NCBI GenBank assembly: GCA_025360525.1 | Contig: JANYCA010000144.1 | Coordinates: 12,071 to 76,070 of the forward strand | DNA length: 64,000 nucleotides | Reading direction: 5' to 3' | Source: Chitinophagaceae bacterium | GTDB lineage: Bacteria; Bacteroidota; Bacteroidia; Chitinophagales; Chitinophagaceae | Shown here: piece by piece, positions 42,281 to 51,004 of the stretch | How the letters are laid out: each line of letters opens with the position of its first letter | Position numbering within the stretch: position 1 is the first letter of the stretch | Notes under the pieces: model-generated | The model's database searches: none | Seen by the model: the letters and a program-made list of their open reading frames with translations, nothing else | Told to the model about the DNA's origin: nothing | Program-made: the position numbers and the translations under genes

Positions 42281-43600
42281 ATGCCACCAACCATCATGCC
42301 ATCCGATGAAACATTCACAAGGTTCAGCAACTATGTTAACAATAGGCTGCAATTACATTTTGCTGCAAACGGCGAACAGGTTCCGTTAGGGGAATTACCC
42401 GAAATTGACAGCACTGCATTCAAAGGTAAAAAGTTAAATCACTATGAAACGATTATCCTGCTTACTGCATTGTCGGCTCATGTTCAGCCGACGCTGTTTG
42501 AAAATGCCATTCAACAAAATATGCCTAAGGGCGGCGAGTTTCCGGAATTTGGTGGAGTGAAGGGTACTAATACCAGATACATGTTGCCTACCGGTGATAC
42601 GGCACTTTTTTTATTGGCTGGAACCGATACGGATAAACGCAAACAAGTACTTCGGTATTTTGATGCTTCGCATTGGTTTTGGACAGATTTTGTGCTGTGG
42701 CTGGAGCATGTAAAAGAAGGTGAGCCACGTATGAGCGGTAAGCTTATTTTACACCAGGAGTATGTAGATTTACTTACTACCGGCATGGTTGCAAAGCCAG
42801 CATTTAGCCCGGAATTTCCAGCCAAACTGGTTACCACAAAAATGGAATGGCAAGATGTTATTTTGGCGGCCAAAACAGCCACGCAAATAGACGACATCAA
42901 AATCTGGTTACATCATAACAGAACTTTTTTACAAACCTGGGGAATGGAAAAAAGAATTAAACCCGGGTTCCGGGCCTTGTTTTACGGACCTCCCGGCACA
43001 GGAAAAACTTTAACCGCCACGCTACTGGGTAAGCAATTTGAAAAAAATGTTTATCGCATCGATCTGTCGCAGGTTGTATCCAAGTATATCGGCGAAACAG
43101 AAAAAAATCTGGAGAAAATTTTTATGAGGGCAGAGAACAAAAACTGGATATTGTTTTTTGATGAAGCAGACGCCTTGTTTGGCAAGCGGAGCAATGTGCA
43201 GAATGCACACGACAAATATGCCAACCAGGAAGTAAGTTACCTGCTGCAACGGGTAGAAGATTTTCCGGGTTTGGTGATTTTGGCTTCTAATTATAAAAGC
43301 AATATCGACCAGGCATTTATCCGAAGGTTCAATAGCATTATTCATTTCCCCATGCCCAACCAGGCAGAGCGATACGCCATATGGAAAGCCGCCATACCAC
43401 CCAAAGCCACGCTGGCAAACGATGTTGACCTGGCGACTATTGCTGCAAAATATGAACTTAGTGGTTCTGCCATTGTGAGTGTAATTCATTATGCTTCTCT
43501 GCAAACTATTTACCAACACAGCACCTGCATTTCGAAACCAGACATACTGGAAGGCATAAAAAGAGAATTTGAAAAAGAAGAAAGGGTCTTTAATGGATAA
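42281..43600 (+). CDS. eCIS AAA+ ATPase (Afp15/Pvc15-like)
   Basis: LFYGPPGTGKT, VVSKYIGETEKNL, LFFDEADALFGKRS, YANQEVSYLLQR. Confidence 0.95.
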   Translation: MPPTIMPSDETFTRFSNYVNNRLQLHFAANGEQVPLGELPEIDSTAFKGKKLNHYETIILLTALSAHVQPTLFENAIQQNMPKGGEFPEFGGVKGTNTRYMLPTGDTALFLLAGTDTDKRKQVLRYFDASHWFWTDFVLWLEHVKEGEPRMSGKLILHQEYVDLLTTGMVAKPAFSPEFPAKLVTTKMEWQDVILAAKTATQIDDIKIWLHHNRTFLQTWGMEKRIKPGFRALFYGPPGTGKTLTATLLGKQFEKNVYRIDLSQVVSKYIGETEKNLEKIFMRAENKNWILFFDEADALFGKRSNVQNAHDKYANQEVSYLLQRVEDFPGLVILASNYKSNIDQAFIRRFNSIIHFPMPNQAERYAIWKAAIPPKATLANDVDLATIAAKYELSGSAIVSVIHYASLQTIYQHSTCISKPDILEGIKREFEKEERVFNG

Positions 43601-43836
43601 TAATTACTGAAAAAAATAGCCAGCTTTTATTAATAGTAACATAAATAAACAAGCATGTAAAATAAACTGCCTGCAAAAGAAGAGGTAAGTTTTCATTATT
43701 AATTGTTTGCTGATACTCATATTTTGTCGGCTTTTATTTTCATAACACCAACCAATAAAAACATCTTGCACAAGATTGGCTTTTTATTTCTTAACACTTC
43801 ATGTACGGATGAGTATTTACTACCATATTTTTTTTG

Positions 43837-46800
43837 ATGGATTTATCTATATTTAATCTGTACAAAATTTACCATACTGTGAATTTTGAAAACAGTAAAG
43901 TCTTTAACCCCAATTTTGCAGTAGAAAAAAATGAAGCCATTTTGTCTTCATTGAATAAAATCTCTACTGCATAGCAGTTGGATTTTAGTAAATTAAATGA
44001 TTGATAAACAGGCACTATTTTTTACACACAAGATGCAAAAACTGCTATTGCATCTTGTGTGTTTGTCTAAAAAAGGGCTACTGCAAAATCTGGGTTTAAC
44101 GATTCGCAATTTCAATTAGCTCCTGCAATCAATAATCTTATTTTTTACAATGAAATTGACATATTCCCCGGTGTTATTTTAGAAAATAATTACACTGCCA
44201 TCAAAAAAATAATTCAGGAAACAAAGCAATACGAATTGTTTTTGCAACAAAAAGGCCGTCGTCCCAATTATGATGTATATGCTTGCTTTCAGCCATTTAA
44301 TGAAGCGGTAAAAGCCCTTTATCCTTTTTTGAAAAAACTTCAGCAGGAAGTTAAAAAAGGGGATGTGATTTTAAATATGTGGGATAGGTCGGGTTGGCTC
44401 ACCACCCTACTTTCCGGGTTATTTCCAGAGCAACATATCATTACTACCTGGGAAGGCAATAAGGATATCCTCGGCTATAAAGGCTTTTCATTCTGGATGA
44501 AAGAAAACAAAAACGTAACTATTTTATTCTGCGATTTAAATGCCCGTTGCCCATTAAAGAAAAGTGTATAGCATTTTCTGTTGGCTTGGATGCCTTTCAT
44601 CGGTTCAATCAACATTTATTGATTAATGAATTGATGAGAGTAGTGAAAGATGATGGTGCAATTATTTTTCCGCATGTACATCTAAGCAATTCGGAGCCTG
44701 AACCTTTTTTTGAAAGAGGGGGGAAACAACGACATGGAAAAGAGTATACCGAGGCATTTCAACTTTTAACAGCCAATACCAATTGGAAAGGTTTTGTTTT
44801 TTCGGAACCTGCTTTGTTTAGGGCAAATGATATTGATTGTGCAGCATCTATTGAGGTAATATCCAATCCCAATACAAGTGATTACAATGCAATGCTTGCA
44901 CTTTTACCAAAGGCATGGGAAAAGATATTTTTGAGTGCTTTTACTTTAAAAGATATTTCATCAATTCAGGACTCTTATATCCTTGTAAATCCATTATTAA
45001 AAATTGATCTGCACCAGCAGTGGGTTTCCATTGATTTTAATCACGTGAATGGTGCTGCCGGATCATTGTTAAAACGTCATCCTGTTTATTTGGAGCGGAT
45101 AAAAGATTTAGAAGATTATCACATTACAGAATTGGCAGCAAAGACAATATATCTGGCCAATAAAGGGTTTTCAATTAATGAAATTTGTAGTGGTTTAAAT
45201 ATTGACACCAATACAATCATTGCTGAATTGGAAATTTTAGAAACTGCAGGATTGGTGCAGGTGTTGCCCATATCTTATGACGGATTCCGGTTGCAAAATC
45301 ACCTGATATCACAGCAATACATCATTCTAAAATACAAGCAACATTTAAAAGCGCTGTGGAAAAATTCGGTAGCGCTTTTTGCTGAAAATATTGCATTGGT
45401 TTCCTTAATAGATGGCAGTGAGTTTACCTACCAGGATTGTGATGACATCATCAAAACCATCGGGTTTACCCTGCAAAAAAGCAATATTAAAAAGGGAGAT
45501 AAAATTATCATCTGTTCCAAAAGCCATTCAGAAGCTATCCTATTATTTTGGGCTTGTATGCAAGCAGGTGTTGTGGTGGTTCCAATTGGAATGCATTTGC
45601 CAGCCGCCGCTTTTGCTTATATCATAGAACAAACCAACCCTGTGTTATGCTTTACCAATCAAAGCGTTTTAGCCGAAAATAAATATAGCTTCGGAAATAT
45701 AACTACCATTCTTTTTGATGAAGCAGAAATGGTGGAAAGTAATAACGGACTTTATTTTTCAAACTGGTTAACAGAAGAAGAATTTAGCTATGAGGAAGCA
45801 ACTATCTCCCATATCGATGAAGCAGTTATTTTATTTACTTCCGGATCTACTGGAACACCAAAAGGAGTGCAACTTTCTCATGGTAATTTATACCGGAGTG
45901 GCCGGTTGATAACAGAAACTTTTTGTTGGGAAGCCGAAGATCGCTTTTTAGCATTTGGTGGTTTAGATAGTATGAGTGGTTTACGCAATGCTACTATCGC
46001 ACCCGCTCATGTTGGTGCAAGCGTAGTTATTCCTACAGAAGGTACCGGTAATAATTTGTTTAACATCGTTGAAGATGTTGCTCAAAACAAGGTTACTATT
46101 TTGGGGTGCAACCCGGCAATGCTGCATCAACTTGTAAAGCATACAAATAAAATAGGAAGCCAGCTAAAATCTGTTAAAACGCTTATCTGCACAGGCAATA
46201 AATTAAGCAACACACTAAGGGCAGATTTTAAAAATGCTTACAATTTACCCATACTCAATTATTACGGATTAACAGAAACTACCGGTATCTGCATTTCCCA
46301 ATCAATGGCAGATGTGCAAATAGATTTGGATACTATTGGAAAACCAATTGACTGCATTGCCCAGATTGTAAATGAACAGGGAGAAGTAATGCCAGCAGGG
46401 GAAGAAGGCGAACTGAGGATTTTTAGTGAGAACCTGATGCAGGGCTATTTTAAAGATAAAATTCAAACAGCGTTGGTGCTTAAAAATGGATGGTTTTATA
46501 CCCTGGATTTGGCCAGGTATACAACCGATGGTAATATTGAGCTCATTGGCAGAAAAAGGAATATTGTAAAAACAGCTACCGAAGAGTTGGTTTACCTAAG
46601 TGTGGTTCAGCAATTTATTAATAGTCTTTCATTAGTAGAAGATTGTTATGTATGCTCTTATCAAATAGAGAATGCTGAAAAAATAGCTGCATTCATTGTG
46701 CTGAAAAAAGGTCTTGATACAGATGAGCAGGCAGTAAAGCTGGAAATTAAAAATGCCATTGCAAAAAATTTAGGAGAAAATAAAGTGCCCAATAAGATAA

Positions 46801-46868
46801 CATTTTTACAAGAACTGCCTTACAGCGATAACGGCAAATTATTAATCAATCAACTAAATAATGAGTAA
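43837..46868 (+). pseudogene. Class I SAM-methyltransferase-like domain fused to an adenylate-forming (AMP-binding) enzyme, disrupted
   Basis: One frame from ATG 43837 with stops at 43972, 44002, 44005, 44068 and a 1-bp deletion in CCC 44543-44545; ELMRVVKDDGAII; LFTSGSTGTPKG; YYGLTET. The 5' start is a reconstruction. Confidence 0.75.
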
Positions 46869-50758: not shown

Positions 50759-50769
50759 ACTAATGGAAT

Positions 50770-50907
50770 ATGTATAATTTTTCACTAAAATGGTTTGATA
50801 AAAAGTACGCAAATGTTTTAATCTCTTTATGGTACTTGTTTCTCTTATTGCTGGTTTTTCATTATTTACATTCTGATAACGGACGATTTAAATACATTGG
50901 GTTTTAA
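50770..50907 (+). CDS. DltX-like 45-aa membrane peptide (not in the ORF track)
   Basis: MYNFSLKWFDKKYANVLISLWYLFLLLLVFHYLHSDNGRFKYIGF*: one TM plus C-terminal FKYIGF, 11 nt after the MBOAT stop. Confidence 0.75.
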   Translation: MYNFSLKWFDKKYANVLISLWYLFLLLLVFHYLHSDNGRFKYIGF

Positions 50908-50920
50908 ATGATAAATGCCA

Positions 50921-51004
50921 GGCGCATGCCTTTGTAAATAAGCCATGCCGGAAGGTATAAAACGAGCATTTGAAAAAGAAGAAAGGAATTTTAACGCCTG
51001 GTGA
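50921..51004 (+). repeat. Degenerate duplicate of the 3' end of the Afp15-like ATPase (43520-43600)
   Basis: PEGIKRAFEKEERNFNAW* vs LEGIKREFEKEERVFNG*; ungapped, offset 7401; 19-bp identical core ATTTGAAAAAGAAGAAAGG. Confidence 0.85.

Follow-up and report, generated by a model that had tools for sequence, protein, structure and literature searches.

An apparent relic of a displaced ATPase gene end points to replacement of an extracellular contractile injection system locus in a Chitinophagaceae genome

We analysed a stretch of 64,000 nucleotides (the window; contig JANYCA010000144.1 of assembly GCA_025360525.1, Chitinophagaceae bacterium), in which an extracellular contractile injection system (eCIS) locus is followed by an operon of dlt-like acylation genes (the cluster) and by a convergent gene for a glycoside hydrolase of family 3 (GH3). 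The 3' end of the eCIS ATPase gene, afp15, occurs twice, once in the intact gene and once, degenerate, between the cluster and GH3. Comparison with relatives revealed that the region is a real insertion/replacement polymorphism, in which the right copy appears to be the remnant of the resident afp15 end and the left copy the end of an incoming allele with its own native flank. We favour, with confidence somewhat above even, replacement of one eCIS allele by another, anchored by eCIS homology and closed on the right by an illegitimate join 81 nt before the resident stop codon. Below, G000 is the genome of the window (a 4.9-Mb assembly); other handles with G denote genomes, and those with L contigs or loci, that were compared with it.

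The preliminary description of this DNA had reported a gapless repeat with a 19-bp core and 33/36 matches over the part encoding EGIKRxFEKEER, and alignment confirmed it. Positions 43520-43597 and 50921-50998 are identical at 58/78 nt, with zero gaps and a 19-nt identical core. When the left copy was searched against the 4.9-Mb genome with blastn, the right copy was returned at E = 2.1e-10 and no third copy was found, the next match having E = 0.03. A repeat search extended the pair to 43521-43634 and 50922-51035 (114 nt, 71%), the longest direct repeat of the region. GC content is 32-39% between the copies, ~40-50% in the eCIS flank and 43-46% in GH3. Translation of the right copy gives ..K-stop-AMPEGIKRAFEKEERNFNAW-stop, and its afp15 counterpart reads ..KPDILEGIKREFEKEERVFNG-stop. 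The right copy is degenerate, as first described: it has an internal stop and an E to A change where the residue is invariant across all afp15 homologues examined, and its TGA (51002-51004) adjoins the GH3 stop (51005-51007, minus strand). The same right junction is present in G079 and in metagenome contig L130, two independent assemblies, so the right copy is not an assembly artefact. This relic is less decayed in L130 and carries an internal deletion of 33-34 nt in G079.

Relatives in which afp15 directly abuts GH3, which the preliminary description had proposed to look for, do exist. G049, L115, L116, L117 and L119 each have a single afp15 end next to GH3 and lack the cluster. The finding that would have contradicted the original idea, two copies in cluster-free relatives, was thus not made. 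G049 belongs to the same genus (afp15 92% and GH3 90% identical in amino acids), and its afp15 stop lies ~6 nt from the stop of an intact GH3 gene of 725 aa. Window positions 42238-43611 and 50950-53238 both align to G049 with 63 nt overlapping, so this genome holds a single repeat copy. The metagenome contigs L115, L116 and L117 are arranged like G049, as is L119 except that its GH3 gene is largely deleted. The left side of filled sites was found in metagenome contigs L113, L114 and L120 (afp15 85-95% identical in amino acids), where afp15 is followed by a 278-nt spacer and an intact first cluster gene of 932 aa. These three contigs come from metagenome samples with the ENA accessions ERZ28573536, ERZ27314322 and ERZ28593169. 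G079 has the right junction of the window, but with large deletions in the cluster and in GH3. Set aside were G154 (afp15 92%), whose contig ends inside afp15 and whose GH3 is 72% identical, and G011, G005, G013, G014, G024 and G017 of the same genus (afp15 47-58%), whose synteny was uninformative.

Allele tails and flanks indicate which copy is the resident one. Empty-site alleles (type E) end in VFNA/T-stop, and filled-site alleles (type F) in VF(R/K/N)G(E)-stop. Outgroup eCIS loci end in VFTGE-stop (L121, L124) or VFTCE-stop (G243), like the F alleles. The relic tail reads NFNA-stop in G079 and FNA-stop in L130, and an FNA-stop tail together with the GH3 junction is matched by the E arrangement only. 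The relic joins GH3 exactly as in E genomes. Fusion of the afp15 end to the GH3 end is a unique structure and must predate the filled state. On the left side, the DNA from 43601 to ~43800 aligns with the outgroup spacer (45 nt) and the first ~150 nt of a 1211-aa gene. Where the repeat seemed to run on beyond the afp15 stop (43601-43634), the sequence is therefore native eCIS spacer and not a copy of the GH3 end. The preliminary description had taken the right copy for the original afp15 end and the left one for an incoming replacement. Both assignments appear to hold: the right copy keeps an FNA-stop/GH3 junction seen only in empty-site genomes, and the left copy has a VF-x-G-E-stop tail and 200 nt of downstream DNA corresponding to the native eCIS flank of the outgroups.

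The opposite polarity, with a resident left copy and a foreign or decayed right copy, and with it a 115-bp target duplication followed by differential decay, was suggested by G049 alone, on the basis that the left copy matches empty-site alleles at 69-70/78 and the right copy at 56-57/78. It was overturned by the outgroup flanks and the further allele tails. Codon-position counts of the 20 differences between the copies (6/7/7) and clock arguments from synonymous divergence (dS) did not separate neutral decay from foreign origin. In the outgroup loci themselves (L121 5304-8939; L124 4393-6240), afp15 is followed after 45 nt by the gene for the 1211-aa protein, which has an N-terminal membrane anchor and gave no match in a Pfam search.

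The incoming DNA was probably larger than first thought. E and F alleles differ over the entire afp15 gene, and the F clade is monophyletic in the afp15 tree (99% ultrafast bootstrap, UFboot). Between 41.3 and 43.6 kb the window is 90.5% identical to F contigs versus 82-86% to E contigs, and its tape-measure gene is 87% identical to that of the F-type contig L118 versus 73% for the E-type contig L115. Judged by these identities, the incoming block would exceed 7.4 kb and comprise at least all of afp15 and a 314-aa gene, and it probably includes much of the eCIS. As afp15 is of F type over its full length, like the 314-aa gene, the left crossover would lie outside the afp15 3' end, and none within that end is required. 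Thus, of the original proposal that 7.4 kb with a replacement 3' end entered by recombination within afp15, the insertion or replacement is real, but the block is larger and the crossover probably lies elsewhere. The cluster has its own left border near 43833 and not at the afp15 stop, and 43833-43908 are common to G079, L134, L113 and L120. On the right, cluster copies from another context (L126, L127 and L129; 86-88% nt) are similar up to 50923 and then continue into unrelated genes. Since the right border of the cluster falls at 50923, the relic comprises 50924-51004.

The locus upstream of the cluster is a bona fide eCIS (Afp/PVC-like), with Pfam matches of its core genes to Pvc16_N (1e-29), Phage_sheath, Phage_T4_gp19 (twice), CIS_tube (1e-49), Phage_base_V, GPW_gp25, CIS_TMP (9e-104) and AAA (2e-29). 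The left flank of the window, an 838-aa gene and a LytTR regulator, is contiguous with the eCIS start in G049, so the E and F loci occupy one chromosomal slot. G079 has the same left flank (91% identity), but next to it stands a third type of eCIS, with an afp15 of only 49% identity. Between the 838-aa gene/LytTR regulator and GH3, the slot holds three eCIS types, with afp15 100%, 92% and 49% identical to that of the window (window 14300-43600; G049:C14, C35; G079:C520). These arrangements show a slot whose eCIS locus is exchanged between related Ferruginibacter-like strains. In the GH3 phylogeny G000 and G079 are sisters, with G049 outside (synapomorphies 13:0:1 with three outgroups, 88% UFboot). 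The DNA directly after afp15 is variable, with at least five arrangements in close relatives. In L118, the stretch behind afp15 (5555-6590) is colinear with what immediately precedes the cluster in G079 (L067 935-1188) and L134 (1-96). On that side of the cluster, G079 and L134 have a tetratricopeptide repeat (TPR) gene in place of the eCIS, which points to further rearrangements.

A second junction was found in L134, a JGI contig and the sole close locus in a scan of JGI metagenomes with the protein of the first cluster gene, MT-ANL1. Here the cluster (88% nt identity to the window) is followed by a 143-nt relic with a single stop. This relic is of E type at 7/7 fixed E/F sites and matches E alleles at 127-130/141 positions versus 114-121/141 for F alleles. 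The junction lies 81 nt before the afp15 stop in G000, G079 and L130, and 143 nt before it in L134. On the cluster side, the DltX-like gene ends in TGA followed by ACGGGGAAAAACC in L134, and in TAA followed by ATGATAAATGCCAGG in the window. L134 shares the GH3 deletion with L119 and the left flank with G079. The illegitimate join in L134, between the cluster end and the 3' part of afp15, is a separate and younger one, which may reflect either another acquisition or the replacement of the right side with E-type DNA.

Allele replacement with an illegitimate right end, the reading we favour, would have proceeded as follows. The older occupant of the slot would have had an E-type afp15 with its stop ~6 nt from the GH3 stop, an arrangement that relatives display. 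F-type eCIS DNA would then have entered an ancestor, bringing afp15, its native spacer, the stub of the 1211-aa gene and the 7-kb dlt-like operon already joined behind. On the left side, homologous recombination would have taken place somewhere in, or left of, the eCIS. On the right, the non-homologous end, just after the DltX-like open reading frame (ORF), would have undergone an illegitimate join to the resident afp15, 81 nt ahead of its stop. The afp15 that came in would have been kept intact, while the last 26 codons of the resident would remain as a dead relic beside GH3. Such a process would be homology-facilitated illegitimate recombination (HFIR), with the logic of C-terminal displacement at rhs, contact-dependent inhibition (CDI) and type VI secretion system (T6SS) loci. 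Nothing would have been lost in the exchange, because the donor provided an intact afp15. Only short relics are likely to persist, because long direct repeats would recombine and delete the insert. Later, the operon was killed by six lesions and GH3 was apparently frameshifted.

Several observations weigh against this scenario. No donor, an F-type eCIS with the operon in another chromosomal context, turned up in 339 genomes from the genus and 400 from the family, in a single scan each of GTDB and JGI, or in a search of 5.8 billion proteins. The preliminary description had postulated another eCIS locus with the cluster downstream as the donor; the cluster copies at other sites occupy at least five contexts, none of them with afp15. 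Nor could the left crossover be placed, and the afp15 tree does not settle the root between E and F. At the right joint (L126 ..ACCAAGC/TTT, G000 ..GCCAGGC/GCA, E afp15 ..AACAGC/ACC), the microhomology, read by eye in decayed sequence, would amount to only ~4-5 nt, CA(A/G)GC. The relic of the window shares TGC with F alleles, and its assignment to E rests on the tail and the contiguity with GH3, because its 78-nt body is equidistant from the two types (58/78 to F versus 56-57/78 to E). Its divergence is also unevenly distributed, with 3/36 differences in the EGIKRxFEKEER core versus 17/42 outside. Finally, G079 and L134, with the TPR gene as a different left flank, require further rearrangements.

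We consider it unlikely that the slot once held tandem loci, in the order left flank, eCIS F, operon, eCIS E and GH3, and that deletion later reduced the second of them to a terminal 81 nt and, independently and more recently in L134, to 143 nt. This would account for two relic lengths and for their unequal decay (23% versus 6% difference from E over 52 nt, by hand count), and the AACGCC tail common to both relics fits one chromosomal lineage. The genus does have tandem eCIS loci, G013 carrying two on one contig, 32 kb apart. However, in no genome or contig does a full eCIS come after the operon, and G049 has both flanks and a single eCIS, with the operon nowhere in its genome. Two independent illegitimate deletions would both have had to end in the last 150 nt of a ~30-kb locus, and recombination between afp15 copies that are 86-90% identical would more readily have removed the operon.

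It is improbable that the empty sites are secondary, with the filled state ancestral to the clade and the operon lost from E genomes by recombination between the repeat copies. Direct repeats are deletion substrates, and a crossover in the core would yield an E tail equal to the relic tail, as is observed. The unresolved root between E and F leaves room for this order of events, and the relic keeps GGT like the outgroups where E and F share GGC. Nevertheless, an E-like fusion of afp15 to GH3 is still needed before the filled state, which adds steps. Deletion between 80-nt repeats cannot explain that E differs from F far upstream, as in the tape-measure gene (73% versus 87%), and at GH3 G049 falls outside G000 and G079.

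Simple insertion of a 7.3-kb cassette between two stop codons, with duplication of a ~115-bp afp15/GH3 junction and decay of each copy in its unneeded half, is very improbable. Consistent with it, the repeat extends 34 nt beyond the afp15 stop in the repeat search, the sequence after the stop in F matches the GH3 antisense strand at 21-22/40 positions (p ~3e-4 relative to genomic 40-mers of matched GC), similarity changes over at the two stop codons, and the total divergence is about that of neutral decay since the E/F split (dS 0.5-0.7). It is largely refuted because 43601-~43800 is clearly homologous to the spacer and following gene that are native to outgroup eCIS loci in other genomic contexts. 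Moreover, the G-E-stop tail of F is the outgroup state, with the relic having the E tail, and the other insertions of the operon that were tested lack flanking repeats.

Site-specific entry of an integrative element at the afp15 3' end, with the 19-nt core as attL/attR, a surrogate gene end and an integrase lost or acting in trans, is hardly credible: imperfect direct repeats with an identical core do bracket low-GC DNA, which is how elements directed at the 3' ends of genes classically look, but no integrase, relaxase or transposase lies in or beside the operon copies examined (only unrelated IS110 fragments upstream in L131), the junction positions are unequal (-81 and -143) and the operon-side ends differ, the crossover implied by the empty sites is at the stop codon, outside the 19-nt core, and the operon copies tested elsewhere have no repeats.

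On a broader reading of the same data, the 3'-terminal ~150 nt of the eCIS ATPase gene would serve recurrently, and without any recombinase, as a docking point, at which whole eCIS alleles are swapped, together with passenger operons or payload genes, by recombination with a homologous anchor and an illegitimate end. We regard this as possible but doubtful. Two independent junctions (-81, -143) and at least five arrangements after afp15 are in keeping with it. The afp15 end had been proposed earlier as a cassette-exchange point, which finds partial support in the second, independent junction of L134 and the variable DNA downstream of afp15.

The features of the window are listed in table 1. 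All parts of a dlt-type system are recognisable in the cluster (an MBOAT protein, two AMP-binding enzymes, a DUF1574 protein and a 45-aa ORF), though not intact in this genome. Pfam matches on the ORFs scanned between 43.6 and 50.9 kb were to AMP-binding, MBOAT and DUF1574 only. The MBOAT gene matched TIGR04091 with E 2e-56 and 192 bits, which is under the curated cut-off of 375. The separate ORFs for an acyl carrier protein (98 aa) and an SGNH protein (186 aa) that had been described are in fact one DltD-like gene, of 305 aa in relatives, split by the TAA at 49014. The carrier function more likely lies in the C-terminal ~80 aa of ANL2, as suggested by a DGWDSMAHL motif. No PP-binding match was obtained, and no separate carrier protein was confirmed.

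Table 1. Positions of repeat copies, borders and genes around the eCIS/GH3 junction of the window.
Feature	Position	Strand	Evidence
eCIS gene for an AAA+ ATPase of afp15 type, intact (439 aa); allele of F type	42281..43600	+	Pfam AAA, E 2e-29; F clade 99% UFboot
Left (functional) repeat copy, last 26 afp15 codons	43520..43597	+	58/78 to right copy; 69-70/78 to empty-site alleles
Native eCIS spacer after afp15	43601..43650	+	homologous to the 45-nt spacer between afp15 and the next gene in outgroups L121 and L124; also in L118
Decayed 5' stub of the 1211-aa gene natively after afp15 in this eCIS lineage (end approximate)	43651..43800	+	~70% nt versus L121/L124; tblastn 38% over 45 aa, 43667-43795
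Upstream region of the cluster and first MT-ANL1 codons (start ~43878)	43833..43908	+	shared with G079 (L067 1192-1266), L134, L113 and L120
MT-ANL1, methyltransferase-like/adenylating enzyme fusion, 932 aa when intact	43878..46868	+	intact ORF in G079 and L113; here broken by the MITE and a -1 frameshift near 44542 (alignment)
Miniature inverted-repeat transposable element (MITE) in the 5' end of MT-ANL1, 197 bp, 22-nt terminal inverted repeats	43903..44099	.	absent from the site in G079, L113, L120 and L134
ANL2, second adenylating enzyme, carrier-like C-terminal tail	46936..48717	+	Pfam AMP-binding; in-frame TGA 47602-47604 at a conserved Trp (L075, L076, L077, G079)
DltD-like (DUF1574/SGNH) gene	48720..49637	+	single 305-aa ORF in L075, L105, L076 and L126; in-frame TAA 49014-49016 here
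DltB-like MBOAT gene, 376 aa in relatives	49634..50758	+	Pfam MBOAT; TAA at 49709 in place of a Gln codon, TGA at 50435 in place of a Trp codon
DltX-like 45-aa ORF ending in FKYIGF	50770..50907	+	conserved, and called after the MBOAT gene in L126-L129, L131 and L132; tblastn match in L075
3' flank native to the cluster, with the right border of the incoming DNA	50908..50923	+	similarity to L126, L127 and L129 stops at 50923
Probable relic, last 26 codons and stop of the displaced resident afp15 (right copy)	50924..51004	+	tail AAC GCC TG(A/G) TGA = F-N-A-stop; contiguous with the GH3 end
GH3 beta-glucosidase-type gene, convergent	51005..53153	-	Pfam Glyco_hydro_3, Glyco_hydro_3_C and Fn3-like over two ORFs

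Six inactivating lesions were found in the operon of G000: the MITE, the frameshift near 44542 and the stops at 47602, 49014, 49709 and 50435, the TAA at 49014 replacing a Trp codon of the DltD-like gene. The MITE sits ~25 nt into the first cluster gene and is the sole mobile element in the insert of the window. It has five genomic copies with 89-100% identity, the four others (89-95%) being located on contigs C73, C55, C164 and C118. All four nonsense lesions fit G to A or C to T transitions, as judged from the residues of relatives and not from their codons, and three are at Trp. A donor code in which TGA specifies Trp was ruled out by the TAA lesions at Trp and Gln codons, the frameshift and the MITE, and by TGG in G079 and other relatives. 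Intact copies of the operon exist in relatives. Between G000 and G079, ANL1 has a dN/dS (ratio of nonsynonymous to synonymous divergence) of 0.14 with dS 0.42, so the operon was under purifying selection for most of its time at the site and died recently.

The cluster is present in 5/339 genomes of the genus; among family genomes, only distant homologues (36-38%) were found, in 2/400. At least five cluster contexts lack afp15. G279 and G185 share one of the contexts, while G237 and G279 have only the 6.87-kb cluster in common (90%); further contexts are those of L126-L129, of L131/L132 (with IS110 fragments upstream) and of L077. The operon moves as a discrete 6.9-kb unit. The cluster is not eCIS-linked, and no afp15 was found near its copies in other contexts. 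Flanking repeats were absent from the other operon sites L075, L076, L077 and L105. In agreement with the preliminary description, no integrase was detected nearby: Pfam found neither integrase nor transposase in the ORFs scanned at 43.6-50.9 kb or beside the G237 copy (L075). No recombinase was seen among the called genes of L126-L132 except the unrelated IS110 fragments upstream in L131. The insert of the window has no recombinase, terminal inverted repeats or short target-site duplication.

Relative to G049, the GH3 gene of the window has a frameshift caused by one additional T in a T run near 52198 (52158-52198, by alignment), either genuine or a sequencing error in the homopolymer. G049 and L115 have the gene intact (715-725 aa). 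It is largely deleted in G079, L119 and L134, and is therefore seemingly dispensable in the clade. The payload genes of the eCIS loci differ, with a 2204-aa protein in the window versus DUF4157 proteins of 349-547 aa in L113 and L115. Where the left flank of the eCIS slot has its edge, at 11206-11530, there is a repeat of ~300 bp with >25 copies in G079 and ~8 in G049, in all likelihood one more mobile element of the non-autonomous kind.

With empty and filled sites, two junction variants and three alleles, the locus is a documented natural example of eCIS replacement in a fixed slot, and it indicates that unrelated operons can hitch-hike behind an eCIS. It is also a warning for annotation. 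The dlt-like operon is a dead passenger here, and its position is no sign that acylation and injection are functionally linked. Toxin loci already provide instances of this mechanism, in which recombination leaves a displaced gene end behind, and this would be a new example in an eCIS. We know of no prior description of a displaced ATPase gene end in an eCIS, a point that our literature search did not address. If true, the docking-point reading would extend C-terminal displacement from polymorphic toxins to contractile injection systems.

The closest known parallel is found at toxin loci. HFIR has been proposed for orphan 3' ends at rhs loci and for sequential displacement of T6SS effector-immunity modules (Kirchberger et al. 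2017, PMC5361080, where Jackson et al. 2009 is cited). As at rhs, CDI and T6SS loci, homology would be provided by a conserved upstream part, a new gene end would arrive together with passenger genes, and the old 3' end would be pushed downstream as an orphan without a recombinase; intermediates occur in related strains. Unlike at those loci, the displaced gene is a structural or assembly ATPase of an eCIS and not a polymorphic toxin, the relic is non-coding, 81 nt long and single rather than part of an array, and the passenger is a cell-envelope acylation operon instead of an effector-immunity pair.

HFIR in naturally transformable bacteria, for which PMC5361080 cites de Vries & Wackernagel 2002, Prudhomme et al. 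2002 and Meier & Wackernagel 2003, would share with this locus a single homologous anchor, foreign DNA trapped beside it and an illegitimate joint, perhaps also the few bases of microhomology at that joint. Here, by contrast, the process is deduced from sequence, and the joint lies inside the region covered by the anchor, leaving a short duplication. HFIR experiments usually yield a deletion instead of a duplication. With integrative elements that target 3' ends (att sites in tRNA or protein genes, with a surrogate end) the locus shares imperfect direct repeats of a gene end that bracket foreign DNA and a target gene that stays intact, but it has no integrase, its junction positions are not fixed and the crossover lies outside the identical core. 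Finally, eCIS loci are known to vary in their boundaries, often to carry toxins at the 3' end and to have evidence of horizontal transfer (Geller et al. 2021, PMC8213781). The DNA right after the last core gene differs among close relatives here too, whereas what varies is a passenger operon and the chromosomal neighbours, with the payload genes lying upstream of afp15.

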